A stretch of 64,000 nt of DNA from a virus (taxonomy: Duplodnaviria; Heunggongvirae; Uroviricota; Caudoviricetes), in IMG/VR virus record IMGVR_UViG_2681813233_000007; one strand, 5' to 3'. The notes beneath the pieces are model-generated. The model did no database searches, had not been told where the DNA came from, and was given only the letters and a program-made list of their open reading frames with translations. This document shows, piece after piece, positions 9,859 to 49,444 of the stretch (its first letter is position 1; each line of letters starts with the position of its first letter). Position numbers and translations under genes: made by a program.

Positions 9859-10200
9859 GCTGTTTCTAAATCGGAATGTATGATCTGCATCATCGTCTGA
9901 AGTCATCCATTGCTGAAATTTTTAGTTGATCTTCCATGTTTTCAGGCTTATATTCATGCCGTCGTAGCAAATTCTGCGACCGGGTTTGACAGCCTGAATA
10001 CTTACGCGGACAACCGCACATTTCCGATATTGCGGTATTTTTGTGTCCGTAAAACCACGTTACGCCCGAATTATGGTGGGGCGTGATGGGGAGGCTTCGG
10101 CCTGCTGGTTTCGTAAGTGCCAGTCTGTCAACCCTGTCACGTCCTGCCACCTGTTTGACAGCGGGTCGCAGGTTGTTTATCAACTTACGAGGCCGTAACT

Positions 10201-20807: not shown

Positions 20808-22031
20808 GTGACGGGAACAGCAATGAGTCAACACACTGATACTTCTAATCTGGAAATTATCTCGACAGCAATTGAAACGCTGCGCACACAAATCGCTCTT
20901 ATACAGAAACGGAATCCGGGTGATGACCTGTCAAAGCGACTGCACGAGAGTGTCATTGCCACTACAGATAACCTGGTGGCGGAAATCAACAAGCTGCTTG
21001 ATGATGGGGCAGTTGATTACAATAAGCTGGTGGATCAGTTTGAGGAATACCAACAAGCCGTTAATGATGGCTTGATCCGTTTTTCACAAGTCACAGGCGT
21101 ATCAGCGACAGTTGAAAGCCTAGGTGATGCAGTTAATCAATTTGCCGCGAATATGCGTAATGAGATCGGCAATCTGGAAGCGCGTCTTGAACAGGCAAAT
21201 ACACTGCGTAAATCTGCCGAAGCCGATTTGAACCGTTACAAAAAAGACTATCCGCCAAGCCTGACAAAGCGGCTGGATGTTGCGGAGAAGGATAACCGCA
21301 CGCTGAAAAGAGAGCGCAGGGAACTAAAAGAGCGTTTAACCAAGCTCAATCAGCAATGCATTGATTATCAAGGCGAAGGCGTCACACTGCGTAAAAAGTT
21401 GGCTACAGCGCAGAGCATTATCGAAACATTAAAGCGAGAGTGCTCACAGCTTGGTCACGATCTGAACCGTGCTTGTGGCATGGGACAAAGACCAGAGACA
21501 TTTCCACTCATGTATGATGGAAGGGATGCCATTGCCTACATCCATGAGTATCCGCACGGCCTGGTTGCGGAAACAGGGCAGCGTGGCGAAGCACTGTTGA
21601 CGGCTAATTACCATCAACAAATCAGAACCAATCGCCTGTTAACGATGGATGTGATCCCATCGGTATGGGGAACGCCGCTTTACTATCGCCTGCCGGGCTT
21701 CGAAAAGGACTGGAATACCGACATAGACGAATGTCTCGCAGATAAAATTATGGCGTACCTGGAGACGGATTTTCCGCGCTTATATCGCCGGATTATGGAC
21801 TCTAAGGATGCGCCAATCGATGAATTAAAAATGCGTCCGGAGACGCTGGAGGCAATCAAGCAGACGGAGTTTGATACTGTATTCAGTGTGGCCTGCATTC
21901 CAAGCTGTTTCCATGAAAGCATCCCGTTCATGCAAGGAGATCGTCGTCAGGAAATCATTGACGCTTGCCGGGTATGGGCGAACGAATGGGATAAGAAGAA
22001 TGGGGGTGTAGAAGATCTTTATGGGAAATAA
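20808..22031 (+). CDS. Hypothetical protein, N-terminal coiled coil
   Basis: 407 aa ORF downstream of an operator-like motif; no recognised domain. Confidence 0.45.
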   Translation: MTGTAMSQHTDTSNLEIISTAIETLRTQIALIQKRNPGDDLSKRLHESVIATTDNLVAEINKLLDDGAVDYNKLVDQFEEYQQAVNDGLIRFSQVTGVSATVESLGDAVNQFAANMRNEIGNLEARLEQANTLRKSAEADLNRYKKDYPPSLTKRLDVAEKDNRTLKRERRELKERLTKLNQQCIDYQGEGVTLRKKLATAQSIIETLKRECSQLGHDLNRACGMGQRPETFPLMYDGRDAIAYIHEYPHGLVAETGQRGEALLTANYHQQIRTNRLLTMDVIPSVWGTPLYYRLPGFEKDWNTDIDECLADKIMAYLETDFPRLYRRIMDSKDAPIDELKMRPETLEAIKQTEFDTVFSVACIPSCFHESIPFMQGDRRQEIIDACRVWANEWDKKNGGVEDLYGK

Positions 22032-22032
22032 T

Positions 22033-22050
22033 GTGTTAGAAATCTAAAAT
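22033..22050 (+). promoter_or_regulatory. Operator-like motif GTGTTAGAAATCTAAAAT
   Basis: Motif family member at the start of the non-coding/tRNA region. Confidence 0.45.
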
Positions 22051-22188
22051 CACAATTCGAATGTATTGATTGTGGAGATAACTTAACATAGAATTTTCCT
22101 TGCTGGTGGGCAGTACCCACGTTTCGCTTGCTGGGCTTGATAGTCACTTATTGGTTATTGTTTGCCCACCAGCATTTAACAAATTAAA

Positions 22189-22206
22189 GTGTTAGAAAAG
22201 TATGGT
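22189..22206 (+). promoter_or_regulatory. Operator-like motif GTGTTAGAAAAGTATGGT
   Basis: Motif family member 155 bp after the previous one. Confidence 0.4.
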
Positions 22207-22685
22207 AATGCAAGAGCACGCTTTGGCACCGTGCAGGCCAAAGTTCAGCAGGTTTAGTGCGGAAAGTGGTTTCAGAGAGAGCACTTTGCGGAGTAAACGA
22301 CAATACATGTTGAGCCACGGAAGGTCTTTTTAAGGTGTTCATTGATGATGGTCCGGCAGAGAGTAACGGTACATGCTGCATCTAATCATCAATGCACATC
22401 TTCAACATTAAGGAGGCATAGGGATTTTTGTGGCGGTTACCTTTTGCCCTGAGTCTCCTTAATGTTGCGGTAATGCACCTATGCGGATGTGGCCTTGCAT
22501 TGTGTCTTGAAAGAATGGGGTAAGGCCGGGGATATCCCCAGGGGGAGGCACCCCCGCTGCAACGAACAGCCACAGACGGCAGTCGAGTGATGGAAACGTG
22601 TAAAGACTTTAAACCTCGTTACGGCTGGCGTGGCAAACGCGACAACCGAGACAGAGCGGTGACGGGCGGAGAGAGTGCCGCATCA

Positions 22686-22805
22686 AGAAAGAAGCCGACT
22701 TGTGATCCCTTTCTGCGGGCATTTGAAAGTGAATCCAGCTCAGGCAGTCGGCTTCTTTCTTGTGTGAGATGTAGCGTATTTGCCCATCTTCGGGTGGGCT
22801 TTTTT
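22686..22805 (+). ncRNA. Candidate structured RNA 3-prime end: 15-bp perfect inverted repeat hairpin plus rho-independent terminator
   Basis: AGAAAGAAGCCGACT (22686-22700) pairs with 22746-22760; then GCCCATC-TTCG-GGTGGGC and T-run at 22782-22805. Confidence 0.4.
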
Positions 22806-23265
22806 AGGGTTTTCGTCATGGTTAGCGACTTTGCGGCGGTTTAGAAACCGACCATTAAAGTAAATGCAAACGATGATCTGATGATGGTAGCGGCCTAAGA
22901 AGCCAGACGCCACGGGGTATGAGTCGTCCCCCGTCAAAAAATCGACCGCAGAGTGTCCCCGTCTGTGTATTAGGGAACGGGGAGGCATAACAGGCAAGGG
23001 CGCTGGTGTGATTAACCAGATGAATGAGAAGGGTCAGGTCTTTCTGGTCAGCGCCCTTACCTGTTACGTCCCTCCCGCGTAACAGCCATTGGTTAATGGC
23101 TTTCTGGGATAATGTCTTGTAACGGGTATATCCCGTCATGCTGAAGGCGCTAATCACGCTGGAAGCCAGGGTTATGCATCCCCTGTTACCGAATTGCAGC
23201 CAGGGCGCGGTGCGCCGAAAAGCATACGGAGGTGGAAGCCCTCGCCGGAGACGTACCCGGCAAGT

Positions 23266-23342
23266 GATGGTGTAGCTCAGTAGGATAGAGCAGCAGCCTT
23301 CTAAGCTGTCGGTCGGTGGTTCGAATCCATCCACCATCGCCA
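23266..23342 (+). tRNA. tRNA-Arg (anticodon UCU)
   Basis: Cloverleaf by hand: acceptor GATGGTG/CACCATC, D-arm GCTC/GAGC, anticodon loop CTTCTAA, T-loop TTCGAAT, encoded CCA. Confidence 0.75.
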
Positions 23343-23344
23343 AT

Positions 23345-23417
23345 GCCGGTTTAGCTCAGTTGGTAGAGCGCCTGCCTTGTAAGCAGGATGTCAGCGGTTC
23401 GAGTCCGTTAACCGGCA
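23345..23417 (+). tRNA. tRNA-Thr (anticodon UGU)
   Basis: Acceptor GCCGGTT/AACCGGC, D-loop AGTTGGTA, anticodon loop CTTGTAA, T-loop TTCGAGT. Confidence 0.8.
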
Positions 23418-23428
23418 CCGACACAACA

Positions 23429-23502
23429 GGTAAGGGTATTTTGCGACGTCGGAGATCGCCGTGCTTGGCAGAGGGTTCGAATCCCTACGAAGTACCCTTA
23501 CC
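23429..23502 (+). ncRNA. Atypical tRNA-like element (possible degenerate tRNA)
   Basis: Has GGTTCGAATCC T-loop and paired termini GGTAAGGG/CCCTTACC, but D and anticodon arms do not fold canonically by hand. Confidence 0.3.
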
Positions 23503-23649
23503 GTTGTGATGAAGTGCAGCTCTTTGAAGCAACCAGAAGATAAGCATCTGGCTTCACAACATAAACCGCATGAACGACCAATAAACGGTAGTCCGTATGG
23601 AGAACACCCCGTTGAGGAAGAGGCCTGGCCGGAACCGTAACCGGCACTA

Positions 23650-23739
23650 CAACGTTGAGAACACTGGCGTAACGGGGTCATATCCCAATCTATGAATAAA
23701 TGTTGCGTTGCAGCGTGACAACCAGTGTTCTCAACATTG
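23650..23739. repeat. 18-bp inverted repeat (one mismatch) with 54-nt loop
   Basis: CAACGTTGAGAACACTGG at 23650-23667 pairs with CCAGTGTTCTCAACATTG at 23722-23739. Confidence 0.7.
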
Positions 23740-23874
23740 TGGTGAATGCGCAGGCTGATGCGCGAAAGACATTGCAGCTATTGCGGAAAAGAGCTGTTCG
23801 GCGGGGCAATTAAACGCCCGTGAGAGTCTGAAATAACCGCAAGCCGGAGATCAGCACCGGTCGCCACAATCAGC

Positions 23875-23961
23875 GGAGAGTAGGGGGCATGGTGCTCAAG
23901 CGGTCTTGAAAACCGTCCCATTGCGCAAGCGATGATGGTTCGATTCCATTACTCTCCGCCA
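23875..23961 (+). tRNA. Long-variable-arm tRNA-like gene, Ser-like (anticodon UGA), atypical D-arm
   Basis: Acceptor GGAGAGT/ACTCTCC, anticodon arm GCGGT-CTTGAAA-ACCGT, T-arm GATGG-TTCGATT-CCATT, encoded CCA; D-stem weak. Confidence 0.45.
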
Positions 23962-24211
23962 TCGCAACGTTAAGAGTATTTGGCTAATTAAGCGAATGCC
24001 GGAAGCAGAACCGGATCATCAAATGCGTACAGGCGTCATCGCCGCCCAGCCAGCCAAGTGCTCTTACCATTGCGGTGAATGCGGCTAAGCGCACGCGGAA
24101 CAGTTAAAACAATCCTCCTTAGTGGTTAAGTCAAACATCCCGGCGTTAATTGTTAACTGGTTAACGTCACCTGGAGGCACCAGGCACCGCAATCTAATAA
24201 AGTTTCAAGCA

Positions 24212-24445
24212 ATGGGGTTTTTGTTGTCAGACTTCAGATATAGATGGTTGTGGAAGGAGAGCCTGTACATAGTGCAGTTATTTCTTCCGCTATTTGTCTG
24301 CTTTGTCATGCTTCCTGAGCTGAAATACGCAATTTCAGACACTTTAAGCACTATCGTTACTTTTGTGTTTTATCTTTACTTTGATTACTTATTGAGCACT
24401 AAAATCAATGAATTATCCGCGGAAATGCAAGGTGGCTGTAAGTGA
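24212..24445 (+). CDS. Small hydrophobic membrane protein (hypothetical)
   Basis: 78 aa from ATG at 24212, in an AT-rich patch; highly hydrophobic. Confidence 0.3.
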   Translation: MGFLLSDFRYRWLWKESLYIVQLFLPLFVCFVMLPELKYAISDTLSTIVTFVFYLYFDYLLSTKINELSAEMQGGCK

Positions 24446-24573
24446 TGGATTTTTGGGCGTTTGCCGATAAGAACCCTGGTTGGACATTTTTATTTTTGCT
24501 GGTGGTTGCATATGGGGTAGAGCAAGCGGCTAAAGCCTTACGCGGTTCTGGCAAAAAGCGTAAGCGGAATTAA
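24445..24573 (+). CDS. 42-aa peptide with a TM segment and basic C-terminus (hypothetical)
   Basis: ATG overlaps the upstream stop (ATGA); MDFWAF...GWTFLFLLVVAYGV...KKRKRN; below the ORF-track size cutoff. Confidence 0.3.
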   Translation: MDFWAFADKNPGWTFLFLLVVAYGVEQAAKALRGSGKKRKRN

Positions 24574-24582
24574 CAGTAATCT

Positions 24583-24658
24583 GGCCCTTTAGCTCAGTGG
24601 TTAGAGCAGGCGACTCATAATCGCACGGTCACCGGTTCAAATCCGGTAGGGGCCACCA
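24583..24658 (+). tRNA. tRNA-Ile2 type (anticodon CAU, lysidine-type AUA reader) or tRNA-Met
   Basis: Near-identical to the E. coli ileX-type sequence as I recall it; anticodon loop CTCATAA, encoded CCA. Confidence 0.8.
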
Positions 24659-25112
24659 TATTTGGTTGTAACACGGCGTATGGCACATGCGTCGTTAGCG
24701 GTCTGGTGTAGCTGTTAGGTACCTTACTAACACTGCATGGGCACATCAGGTAGCCGGAATGTGCAAGTCACCGCTGGAGGGATAGCGGACTCAGGGACTC
24801 ACCATCCTGGCGATTCGGTGTGACAGCCGGAATAGCACGGCGCACAACAGGAAAAGGCGTTTAATTAACGCGAGCGCCGTTTCCGTTGTGGTAATTGCGG
24901 CTATGCGCTCGTGACGAAGCCATTTTCATTCACTACGTTCTGATAAGTGACGTCGCCGGGAGTGGCTAACCTGGCAGGTGGAGGCACCACCGCCACAACT
25001 CCTCTCAATTCATCATATAGCCGCTCAGGCTGTACCTCTTAATTAATACGAAGTTACGACATCACTACCGGTACTTCCGGGGGATAGTCGCGCGTGTAAA
25101 AAAGGAGACGTT

Positions 25113-25688
25113 ATGTTAATGGCGAACGATAACGCATATGCAGAAGAAGATCTCATTTTGAGTGACTTCATAGGGAAGCGGGAACGCTGGACCCAAAAGC
25201 GAGAGGAACTTTACGCCTCATTAGTTCGCAAAGGCGTCAATATCGAAACCGCACAGAGCGGCGATATGACAGTGGTAAGCGTTGGATTGCACGGTGTAAG
25301 CGTGTCAGCAATCAATCATGAGCCATACGTTGCGTTATCCGAGTCAATGGTAAGGTTAGTTAAGTTCCTGAAGTACACAGAAGCGAATAATGTAATCATT
25401 GGCAAAAAGAATATCCCTTTTTCCTCGGCTTTTTACTGGATGATGAAAGGGCTTGATGCCCGGCGGACATCATGGCCTAAAGGGAGCTATATATCGATGT
25501 TCCGTGGCAGCATTGGCAGCAAAGAAAAGCTCTTCGAATTCTTGCCGGAAGAGGCATTCGATATTGTGGAAGGGTGCGATGTGATGGTGATGCCTCGCCT
25601 GGTAATGATGAATGGGGATTTACAGGCGCAGACAGACTGGTTTGCAACTGGTGTGGATATTATCGCGACTGACTGGGAGGCTTTCTGA
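25113..25688 (+). CDS. Hypothetical protein with C-terminal DUF2829-like segment
   Basis: 191 aa; C-terminus ...FYWMMKGLDARRTSWPKG...DWFATGVDIIATDWEAF resembles the DUF2829 pattern seen in the 33335 ORF. Confidence 0.4.
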   Translation: MLMANDNAYAEEDLILSDFIGKRERWTQKREELYASLVRKGVNIETAQSGDMTVVSVGLHGVSVSAINHEPYVALSESMVRLVKFLKYTEANNVIIGKKNIPFSSAFYWMMKGLDARRTSWPKGSYISMFRGSIGSKEKLFEFLPEEAFDIVEGCDVMVMPRLVMMNGDLQAQTDWFATGVDIIATDWEAF

Positions 25689-44775: not shown

Positions 44776-45047
44776 TTTGTTTTCTCCTGTCTGAACATCA
44801 CTATCATCAGGTCGCCTTTTGTCGCTATCCTGGCTGTTGTGCCTGGTTCTATGCGGCTAAGTTCAAATGCGTCATAGAACGCTTCTAATGCCTTCTGGCG
44901 TAGTTCCTGTTTGCGCCGTTTTTTCCACTGTTTTAGGAAAATGGAACCCAGCCATCGCCATGTACTGGACATGATGTAAAGCCAACCGAGAAGTGCCAGT
45001 CCGGTATTTAGGGCCGTATCGATCGTTATCGTGGTGTCGATATTCAC
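44772..45047 (-). CDS. Small membrane protein (hypothetical)
   Basis: 91 aa with a hydrophobic helix. Confidence 0.3.
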   Translation of the reverse strand: MNIDTTITIDTALNTGLALLGWLYIMSSTWRWLGSIFLKQWKKRRKQELRQKALEAFYDAFELSRIEPGTTARIATKGDLMIVMFRQEKTK

Positions 45048-49133: not shown

Positions 49134-49237
49134 ATACTGACTGTTGCGCCCTGGCATTATCGTGGGGTATATTTCTACGGCACCTTAGAAAAACGGGTGC
49201 CGGGATTGGAACCCCGGATAATGTCAAAGGCGACACA

Positions 49238-49259
49238 GACGCCGAAAGCGTCTTTTTTT
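49238..49259 (+). terminator. Rho-independent terminator
   Basis: GACGC-cgaaa-GCGTC followed by TTTTTTT. Confidence 0.7.
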
Positions 49260-49444
49260 GTGTCATGCCATCGCACAGCCATACGTAGCGTTTAGCTCAG
49301 AGATCAATGGTAGTGCTGGCTGGGCTGCCGAAAGGCAGGCCGGTTCCCTTTGACGCCGGTAGTTCCAACCCAGTCAGTGCTACCGCCATTGAGATTGGAA
49401 CCTCACGCGGTAGCTCCTTAACTTAGTCAAAGGAGGCTGCCAAT

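Follow-up and report, generated by a model that had tools for sequence, protein, structure and literature searches.

What is encoded between the tRNA genes in the operon leaders of P1-like phage-plasmids? This question is raised by a stretch of 64,000 nucleotides (nt) of viral DNA (Caudoviricetes; IMG/VR record IMGVR_UViG_2681813233_000007), which we call the window. An original prediction, made from the letters alone, had described in it, at 23266-24916, a cluster of rare-codon tRNAs together with two atypical tRNA-like elements, a long inverted repeat and a motif of about 30 nt occurring four times, and it had guessed that these might be processing signals, decayed tRNA copies or small-RNA genes. 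We followed up this prediction by computational analysis. Our findings indicate that the motif copies are the 5' edges of folded RNA modules, and that these modules, which are packed between the tRNA genes of a single leader, are predicted relatives of the small RNA (sRNA) family STnc100/PasD.

The region in question is the central part of an almost ORF-free leader (ORF, open reading frame) of about 3 kb (about 22.1-25.1 kb), which is of the ban-operon type. When the segment at 22.0-25.2 kb was compared with known elements, phage D6 matched it at 94-95%, and P7 and P1 also matched, all of them at the leader of the ban operon. In addition, more than 1,100 plasmids in PLSDB matched this segment, the top match being 99.9%. 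From these matches, the window is judged to be a common D6/P1-type plasmid prophage of Escherichia coli. It also carries C4 antisense RNAs (Rfam) and pmgS-, lpa- and pacA/B-like genes (ORF list).

The repeated motif opens a folded RNA module

The motif string as typed in the original prediction matched only one site in the window, 23501, because the other copies are one base shorter and differ in register. The repetition itself was found without the string. That is, repeat finding independently gave a 39-nt family (23724, 24057 and 24873) and a 14-nt family (23495, 24061 and 24877), and an independent covariance model, R1, indicated that the repetition is beyond chance. We regard the observation of a repeat as confirmed. 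R1 was built from an alignment of 34 non-redundant viral-contig members (A3), which was made with MAFFT without regard to structure and from which the window and its close relatives were excluded. When R1 was run on the 64-kb window with the filters off, it gave four matches, all in the leader and all on the + strand, and the next match scored 14 bits. A loose hand-made descriptor (an 8-mer, the closing helix and a hairpin) gave about three matches per shuffled window and was dropped as uninformative.

Each motif copy opens a helix whose partner sits 55-125 nt downstream (GUUGYGGUG...CACCRCAAC). The minimum-free-energy folds of all four motif stretches are closed by this helix, and a hairpin abuts its 3' strand. 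We call the folded unit an E module. It is composed of the closing helix (helix P1), an AAU junction, the hairpin P2, a variable or pseudoknotted middle, and the hairpin P5, which is stacked on the 3' strand of helix P1. An E module lies directly 3' of each hairpin of a second type, the X hairpin, which is described below. The motif copies are the junctions between X and E, that is, the 5' edges of the helix that closes the E module.

All E modules of the window lie on the + strand. The highest score was that of E3 (24067-24195, motif copy 3), which has a full STnc100-like core with a pseudoknot (AACAGTTAA pairing with TTAACTG) and reached 88.3 bits with R1 (E=8e-24). E4 (24883-25001, motif copy 4) is an STnc100-like core scoring 39.2 bits (E=1e-9); it has an orthologue in D6, and a pseudoknot, AGCCA/UGGCU, can be read from its sequence. 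E2 (23734-23872, motif copy 2) has the STnc100-like frame and scored 22.2 bits (E=9e-5). E2 shares 97% identity with a PL-leader module of the lambdoid phage mEp460, and compensatory changes are seen in its helices P1 and P5 when the window, D6, P7 and P1 are compared. E1 (23503-23563, motif copy 1) is a minimal module of three helices (P1, P2 and P5) and scored 6 bits; its orthologue in SSU5-like plasmids scored 12.2 bits (E=0.012), and E1 is conserved at 94-96% as a discrete unit in about 230 Klebsiella plasmids. Another STnc100-like core, E0 (22462-22565; 44.2 bits, E=4e-11), lies outside the region described at first and has orthologues in D6 and in viral contigs. R1 also matched the orthologous places in P1, P7, D6, mEp460 and the P22-like phage BUCT554. 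The motif-bearing modules are thus conserved in related elements, and the stretch 23501-23745 hardly differs among P1, P7, D6 and the window, whereas its flanks diverge.

Membership of the STnc100/PasD family

In the E-value mode of the Rfam search, 24071-24191 (E3) aligned to positions 31-147 of the STnc100 model (RF02076). The score was 39.4 bits, which is below the gathering score of 47, and the other E copies were not reported by RF02076. The check with Infernal and Rfam suggested in the original prediction thus gave STnc100 at E3, and the tRNA models matched the Arg, Thr and CAU genes. Hammerhead and other known ribozymes and riboswitches had been considered by eye and were set aside, because the scan of 4,227 Rfam families gave STnc100 only.

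The window copies and STnc100/PasD have the same core, which consists of helix P1 with GGUGAAU, P2, P4, P5 with a GGAGGCACC loop, and the 3' strand of helix P1 with CACC. The R1 scores of E3, E0, E4 and E2 together with covariation support this core fold. RNAalifold on A3 gave five helices. In this alignment, 93.7% of the cells were paired, compared with 38-46% when the partners were slid, the covariation score was 0.47 as against 0.13 or less, and 17 of the 28 pairs had changed on both sides. The P1-like set, that is, the orthologues in P1, P7, D6, mEp460 and BUCT554, gave a similar picture, with 95.6% of the cells paired and both sides changed in 16 of 28 pairs. Furthermore, the segment that follows P2 pairs with the loop of P4 through differing sequences (CCAGUC/GACUGG, CUGGUGU/ACACCGG, AGACUGACA/UGUCAGUCU and others), and we regard this pairing as a predicted pseudoknot kept by unrelated sequences. 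In the copy of phage P1, the G-U pairs in helix P1 work only in the RNA of the + strand. A pattern scan of viral contigs (GGTGAAT, 70-100 nt, GGAGGCACC) found 120 loci, about 95 of which are genuine members. By sequence and covariation, E0, E2, E3 and E4 are assigned to the STnc100/PasD family, and E1 is assigned as a minimal derivative.

Elsewhere, STnc100-type units usually have a sigma-70 promoter about 7 nt upstream of helix P1, so that the start is at P1, with an intrinsic terminator following P1 at a distance of 25-45 nt. Two to four units often stand in tandem near tRNAs, and the units lie downstream of Q genes (two Pfam families) and upstream of holin or nanS. Their positions are therefore like that of PR'-tR', as in the lambda 6S transcript and StxS. 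The window copies resemble STnc100/PasD in their phage or prophage setting near tRNAs and TerB/DUF3927-type genes. In contrast, the window copies lack an individual promoter, single-stranded tail and terminator and are embedded in an operon leader behind X hairpins, and E1, E2 and E4 have mainly the outer frame in common with the family. No promoter-like or terminator-like sites were found flanking E1-E4. Because of these missing parts, the sub-threshold score of E3 and the likeness confined to the outer frame, Hfq binding by the window copies is not expected. Among the three guesses of the original prediction, small-RNA genes came closest, since the motif marks the edges of modules of an sRNA type, but genes with their own promoter and terminator they are not. 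Control of the riboswitch type, in which P2 would compete with a downstream terminator, was also considered; the terminator sequences vary freely and P2 is constant, so that this idea is not supported.

The tRNA cluster of P1 is already known, and so is STnc100 as an Rfam family. In the STnc100 literature searched and in the P1, P7 and D6 records, embedded STnc100 domains without promoter and terminator are undescribed as the main 'spacer' of the P1/D6/SSU5-type tRNA leader, as are the composite of X and E with its relic in lambda and the pseudoknot. These findings change the view of this 'sRNA family', because the STnc100/PasD domain occurs also as promoter-less, terminator-less cassettes between tRNAs. 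Such embedded cassettes are present in P1-, D6- and SSU5-type phage-plasmids, and a relic is present in the late leader of lambda. The conserved part is therefore the folded, pseudoknotted domain and not a seed. This points to a partner, which may be a protein, RNA polymerase or a ligand, and such a partner can now be searched for.

X hairpins and the long inverted repeat

Immediately 5' of each motif copy, the bases form the 3' strand of an X hairpin, in which the 5' strand is ACAGGYAAGRG and the 3' strand is CYCUUWCC. The window has the copies X0, X1, X2 and X3, all on the + strand. X0 (22979-23075) is a long hairpin of the ACAGGYAAGRG...CYCUUACC type; it is an inverted repeat with 27-nt arms and is conserved in P1. 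X2 (23967-24067) encloses a segment resembling the late leader of lambda, and X3 (24843-24882) is a short hairpin ahead of E4 that has a direct repeat in common with X1; the pairing of X2 and X3 was read from the sequence. A boxA-like sequence, UGCUCUU(U/A), lies upstream of the E modules; it proved to be the base-paired 3' strand of the X hairpin and is retained only as a lead.

X1 (23429-23502) is one of the two elements that had been described as tRNA-like. ARAGORN, Rfam and PGAP gave no tRNA call at 23429-23502. The element does not form a cloverleaf; it folds as a 15-bp hairpin with a tip resembling a T arm (-31.6 kcal/mol, z=-4.1 against shuffled sequences), and the T-arm-like tip is absent in P7 and in the SSU5-like copies. 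We therefore rejected X1 as a tRNA. Compensatory changes have preserved its outer 15-bp stem in P7, BUCT554 and SSU5-like plasmids. The tip, in contrast, is variable: it resembles a T arm in P1, D6 and BUCT554, has been replaced in P7, and has degenerated in the SSU5-like copies. The tip is thus at most a relic of a tRNA, and nothing beyond the tip is. Decayed tRNA copies, as guessed at first, are plausible for this tip alone.

Before E2, the role of the X hairpin is taken by the long inverted repeat (23645-23744, + strand). The repeat had been described as 18 bp; it was confirmed and proved to be longer, with arms of 23 nt (23645-23667 and 23722-23744) that are 91% complementary and 54 nt apart. 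It folds at -47.2 kcal/mol (z=-7.2), and its 3' arm extends into the 5' strand of E2. In the orthologue of SSU5-like plasmids, the helix is kept by a change from A-U to C-G.

The same composite is seen in the late leader of lambda (our locus L135, lambda 44790-44960), where, right past tR', an X hairpin precedes a degenerate E (GTTGTGCTGAAT...CAGCACAAC). The interior of this lambda E (lambda 44866-44930) is 97% identical by BLAST to 23986-24050 of the window, within X2. R1 did not detect the lambda copy. We know of no function assigned to this part of the lambda leader past tR'.

In the P1 record, no RNA features are annotated over these elements, and the antisense ORFs plp and upl are annotated there instead. 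These ORFs (P1 locus L003, 1691-2260; window 23391-23681, minus strand) overlap X1, E1, the inverted repeat and E2 in antisense orientation. In P7, 19 nt within 'plp' have been replaced, and neither plp nor upl is annotated. Both ORFs are probably spurious. Thus, even in the textbook phage P1, this region has been annotated with two doubtful antisense ORFs and not with the RNA modules that the comparative data support.

The atypical tRNA-Ser(UGA)

The other element described as tRNA-like (23875-23961, + strand) fared differently from X1. ARAGORN called it Ser-TGA, and PGAP called it 'tRNA-OTHER'. It has a long variable arm, a short D loop, a possible 8-bp acceptor stem and an encoded GCCA, that is, the class II variable arm, G73 and 3' CCA expected of a tRNA-Ser. 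Its best match in the Rfam clan was tRNA-Sec, with 45.2 bits, just under the gathering score of 47. Homologues are annotated as tRNA-Ser in many phages; the annotated tRNA-Ser of rV5-like phages matches the element at 89% identity, and relatives occur in Klebsiella SSU5-like phage-plasmids and T5-like phages. When the window gene was aligned with those of Klebsiella phage p4727, phage isim and phage Sugarland, acceptor pairs 5 and 6 were seen to change from A-U/G-C to G-C/A-U, and the 4-bp D stem (23885-88 with 23894-97) was seen to covary. We therefore regard this gene as a putatively functional, though atypical, class II tRNA with a short D loop. It seems to belong to a widespread phage lineage of tRNA-Ser(UGA) and not to be a pseudogene-like oddity, so that what looked atypical is best viewed as a bona fide phage lineage.

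The tRNA-Sec model gives this gene a higher score than the general tRNA model does. For this gene, an acceptor stem of 8 bp is possible together with a T stem of 4 bp, a D stem of 4 bp closing a 5-nt loop, and a long variable arm. In these points it resembles tRNA-Sec and the allo-tRNA-like class II tRNAs (Mukai et al. 2017). Unlike these, it has the anticodon UGA, which reads a cognate Ser codon, so that no recoding is implied. The invariance of the eighth pair leaves the 8/4 fold (Sec- or allo-like) and the 7/5 fold with a 3-nt linker equally possible.

We also observed that the rV5-like phage isim (L131, 21-691) has a tRNA array of Arg-UCU, Tyr, Ser-UGA, an odd 'tRNA-OTHER', Thr-UGU and Met, whose members resemble the P1/D6 set. 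This suggests that the tRNAs of rV5-like and P1/D6 phages may be drawn from a shared pool of phage tRNA cassettes.

Canonical tRNAs and codon use

The three tRNAs that had been folded by hand were all confirmed. The genes, all on the + strand, are tRNA-Arg(UCU) with CCA encoded (23266-23342; Rfam tRNA 70.6 bits), tRNA-Thr(UGU) (23345-23419; 74.9 bits) and a tRNA with the anticodon CAU (24583-24658; 68.2 bits). All are above the Rfam gathering score of 29 bits and were called by ARAGORN and by PGAP (tRNA-Arg, tRNA-Thr and tRNA-Ile); the PGAP calls were taken from the RefSeq annotation of an identical plasmid. The CAU gene is 89.5% identical to a chromosomal gene annotated as tRNA-Ile in 5,426 of the 5,426 E. 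coli genomes searched. This identity and the PGAP call support the reading as tRNA-Ile2, a lysidine-dependent class, so that the gene is assigned to a type close to ileX/ileY and not to tRNA-Met. The P1 record likewise notes that its trnI is 89% identical to ileX.

In the 37 long ORFs of the window, AGA, AUA, ACA and UCA are used at 6.4, 12.6, 15.1 and 13.1 per 1000 codons, respectively. These values are about two to three times those that we take to hold for E. coli K-12. Thus, the description of the cluster as one of rare-codon tRNAs holds, and all four tRNAs, including tRNA-Ser(UGA), therefore fit a codon-supplement pattern.

The first tRNA is Asn-GUU in P1, P7 and D6 (1567-1642 of our loci L001/L002/L003) and Arg-UCU in the window. 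The two versions have the same acceptor and T arms and differ in the anticodon arm and the D loop, where the Arg version gains an A at the A20 position. Arg-UCU is the minority allele, present in 83 PLSDB plasmids. At 23417-23421, tRNA-Thr is followed by CCG in the window and by CCA in P1, P7 and D6, so that the CCA end is not fully encoded in the window variant.

Organization and proposed role of the leader

All of the tRNAs and RNA modules lie on one strand, downstream of the sole promoter-like site that was found within 21900-25300. This sigma-70 promoter-like site (22066-22094, + strand; promoter scan) stands at the head of the leader, at the place where P1 has Pban with its C1 operators. 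In the leader, tRNAs and RNA domains that each close independently are tightly packed, with 0-9 nt between them. For example, the 5' end of tRNA-Ser is 5 nt past the end of E2, and in SSU5-like plasmids E1 stands at the same position instead, 5 nt before tRNA-Ser.

The ban leader of P1 is the orthologous locus. In P1, the unit consists, in order, of Pban, a dicF-like region, tRNA-Asn, tRNA-Thr, plp/upl on the other strand, tciA-B-C, trnI and ban. The gene order of the tRNAs and tci is the same as in the window, and the P1 leader carries X0, X1, E1, the inverted repeat, E2 and E3. The window differs from P1 in that it has Arg-UCU in place of Asn-GUU, possesses a tRNA-Ser (like D6 and P7), lacks tciA and carries E0 and E4, and in that its leader leads into a Tad2-like gene and not into ban.

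We give roughly even chances to the following reading: the leader is a co-transcribed tRNA operon whose modules act as processed, stable or insulating RNA domains. Upon derepression, the whole leader would be transcribed rightward as a single precursor, the tRNAs would be released by RNase P and 3' trimming, and the long perfect hairpins (X0 and the repeat at 23645-23744) would be cut sites of the RNase III type. The compact E and X modules would fold co-transcriptionally and thereby keep the neighbouring tRNAs from misfolding, and they would also define the borders of processing and remain as stable domains. When equipped with its own promoter, a single-stranded tail of 25-45 nt and a terminator, as in lambdoid prophages, the same domain would constitute the Hfq-associated sRNA STnc100/PasD. 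As DNA, the conserved edges of the modules could be joints for cassette exchange between phages; the breakpoints of homology between the window and P1, D6 and mEp460 coincide with module edges, and on this ground we suspect that the edges may act also as recombination joints. The tRNA cluster of phage T4 also yields the stable RNAs C and D from a common precursor. The likeness to T4 is one of concept only, that is, a tRNA operon with stable RNAs that are not tRNAs, and there is no sequence relationship.

The guess that the motif regions are processing signals fits this proposal. The module-tRNA spacing of 0-9 nt and the long perfect hairpins of the kind that RNase III uses as substrates support it, and the motif regions may thus serve in processing. 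The map of the leader offers a concrete set of candidate processing units.

Several points weigh against this proposal. Cleavage by RNase P, RNase III and RNase E and the stability of the modules are features that we infer. E1 is not significant with R1 in the window (6 bits). The embedded modules have neither the terminator nor the U-tail that make STnc100 and PasD Hfq ligands, and they may act unlike those sRNAs. The pseudoknotted core and the invariant nucleotides (GGUGAAU and GGAGGCACC) suggest a specific ligand or protein partner, and a pure 'insulator' role leaves such nucleotides unexplained. Finally, CRISPRi knock-down of trnT, plp, upl, tciABC and trnI in P1 caused no plaque defect (PMC10695390), so that any function of the leader is accessory.

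The invariant loop and junction nucleotides and the pseudoknot keep two other readings alive, one in which the modules act as decoys and one in which they resemble the put sites of phage HK022. In the first, which we consider unlikely, the modules are trans-acting RNAs (base-pairing sRNAs or decoys of host factors) that are freed from the precursor, and the tRNA operon is their delivery vehicle. Processing of the tRNAs would free the modules with defined ends, and the conserved pseudoknotted fold suits an RNA that binds a protein or ligand. The modules are homologous to the core of STnc100 and PasD, which are Hfq-associated prophage sRNAs, and PasD is abundant in RIL-seq with many mRNA partners (10.64898/2026.05.13.724894). 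However, in the stand-alone units the terminator lies outside the core, as probably does the single-stranded tail that would bear a seed, and both are missing in the embedded copies. In addition, no target or partner of the modules is known.

In the second, which is quite unlikely in our opinion, the E modules and E5, a different conserved module described below, are cis-acting elements that modify RNA polymerase and give resistance to Rho and intrinsic terminators in long leaders. HK022 put and the modules are alike in that they are promoter-proximal structured RNAs in terminator-containing leaders of phage operons. All family members stand in the sense orientation in long phage operon leaders (P1/D6 ban, lambdoid PL, and the late leader past Q genes). 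Many of them begin close to the +1 position of a promoter, and a terminator comes after them, upstream of lysis genes; in the window, E0 lies upstream of the terminator at 22782. E5 and E2 occupy a position like that of putL in some lambdoid phages in which no nut-N arrangement is obvious. The PL leader of mEp460 and of an Stx2a phage is filled by an E5 homologue and the 97%-identical E2, followed by a terminator-like hairpin before the first early-left gene. Because of this hairpin, early-left expression in mEp460 may need read-through that is independent of a phage protein. The invariant loop nucleotides, too, suggest a macromolecular partner. Nevertheless, BLAST found no similarity to put, and the architecture is different, since put is about 70 nt long, consists of two stem-loops in a V shape, and has neither a closing helix nor a pseudoknot; the E modules were rejected as put homologues for these reasons. 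HK022 put works on RNA polymerase by way of the beta' zinc-binding domain. P1 has the same terminator past Pban without a preceding E module, yet its record says that the Pban operator controls ban expression. Moreover, STnc100 units evidently terminate, since the sRNA accumulates, late antitermination is already explained by the Q proteins, and four or five copies per leader exceed what a put-like element would need.

We think it very unlikely that the motif matters mainly as DNA, with the module edges serving as 'linker' sequences for homologous recombination in swaps of tRNA or moron cassettes and the RNA folds being incidental. Several observations favour this reading. The homology of the window with P1, D6 and mEp460 begins and ends at module edges, the interiors of E2 and X1 have been replaced wholesale by unrelated sequence with the edges kept, and the first tRNA occurs as an Asn or Arg version with identical flanks. 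The same modules are found in P1-like, D6-like, SSU5-like, lambdoid and P22-like genomes. However, the compensatory changes, the G-U pairs that work on one strand and the covariation of the pseudoknot show selection on RNA structure, and the exclusive sense orientation favours an RNA function. A linker role is in any case compatible with an RNA role rather than an alternative to it. That the non-tRNA elements are decayed tRNA genes and other junk is extremely improbable and is largely refuted by covariation, for although the X1 tip bears the T-arm-like GGGUUCGAAUCCC and the region is non-essential for plaque formation by P1 (PMC10695390), the near-invariance of 23501-23745, the covariation of the STnc100-type family, the conservation of E1 in a different plasmid family and the lack of resemblance of the modules to tRNAs (ARAGORN, Rfam) all speak against it.

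A frame resembling a tmRNA tag

Upstream of the tRNAs, at 22866-22898 (+ strand), there is a frame of 10 codons (GCA AAC GAT ... GCC TAA; ANDDLMMVAA*) which resembles the SsrA tag and has no start codon. The Rfam model tmRNA_permuted matched it weakly (24.1 bits, E=0.014; gathering score 47). As in a tag template of tmRNA, the frame begins without a start codon at a GCA resume codon and ends in a hydrophobic xAA. A pattern scan found it in at least 120 viral contigs in 14 nucleotide variants, which encode nine peptides (ANEEVYLAVA, ANEDTYLAVA, ANDNQYLAVA and others). It always consists of 10 codons and TAA, and four of the changes are synonymous. There is usually an in-frame stop upstream, with no ATG, GTG or TTG between this stop and GCA. 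The frame is present in P1 (L003, 1163-1195), P7, D6 and SSU5-like elements, and also at L136 (1183-1215).

A tRNA-like domain with G3-U70 and CCA was not found flanking the frame, ARAGORN was negative for tmRNA, and the 5' segment showed no consistent partner. The SSU5-like locus gave no tmRNA match in Rfam. X1 was considered as the acceptor piece of a two-piece tmRNA and was rejected, because T-arm-bearing X1 and the tag frame do not co-occur in SSU5-type elements and an acceptor with G3-U70 and CCA could not be built. A survey in 2014 reported phage tmRNA only in mycobacteriophages and Bacillus phage G, and the present frame is absent from that report (PMC4131195).

We can imagine a joint reading, which we hold to be decidedly improbable, in which the leader as a whole is a composite system of non-coding RNAs in P1/D6/SSU5-type phage-plasmids and has two activities that have gone unrecognised. 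In its first part, the variants of the tag frame would serve split or non-canonical trans-translation as a tmRNA-like template. In its second part, the STnc100-type domain would be an RNA of lambda-, P22- and P1-like leaders, including the late leader of lambda, that binds a specific host factor or modifies RNA polymerase.

Other features of the leader and the window

E5 (24660-24830, + strand) is a conserved module different from the other E modules, and it is found also in promoter-proximal position in lambdoid PL leaders and in BUCT554. Its invariant parts are UAUGGCACAUG, GGUAGCCGGAAUGUGCAAGUC and GGCGAU..GGU.UGAC. E5 is seen also at L004, 2501-2663, and at L134, 1826-1995; it lies about 30 nt past the presumed PL start in mEp460 and Stx2a_1447, and it occurs in P22-like BUCT554. 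In mEp460, the stretch past E2 and upstream of the first early-left gene (L004, 2898-2940) contains an 11-bp stem followed by CUUUUU.

The small ORFs between X2-E3 and tRNA-Ile2 are tciB-like (24212-24445) and tciC-like (24442-24573); taken from the ORF list, they are on the + strand at 24212-24573 and are homologous to tciB/tciC of P1 and orf7 of D6. A search for related loci based on TciB gave near-identical loci only. The first sizeable ORF past the leader (25113-25688, + strand) encodes a Tad2-like anti-Thoeris protein (Pfam PF11195, E=1e-9; PGAP 'Thoeris anti-defense Tad2 family protein'). On this basis, the operon may serve in anti-defence or as an early accessory unit.

Near the head of the leader, an intrinsic terminator (22782-22799, + strand; a 7-bp stem followed by TTTTTT) closes a DicF-like segment, at the place where P1 is annotated with a 'dicF-like region'. 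Within this segment and upstream of the terminator, a perfect 17-bp inverted repeat is found at 22684-22762. Outside the leader, the two C4 antisense RNA loci of the window are located at 9948-10154 and 49180-49390; one has a1/b1 targets and the other lies beside an isrK-like RNA, and all of these matches are above the Rfam gathering scores.

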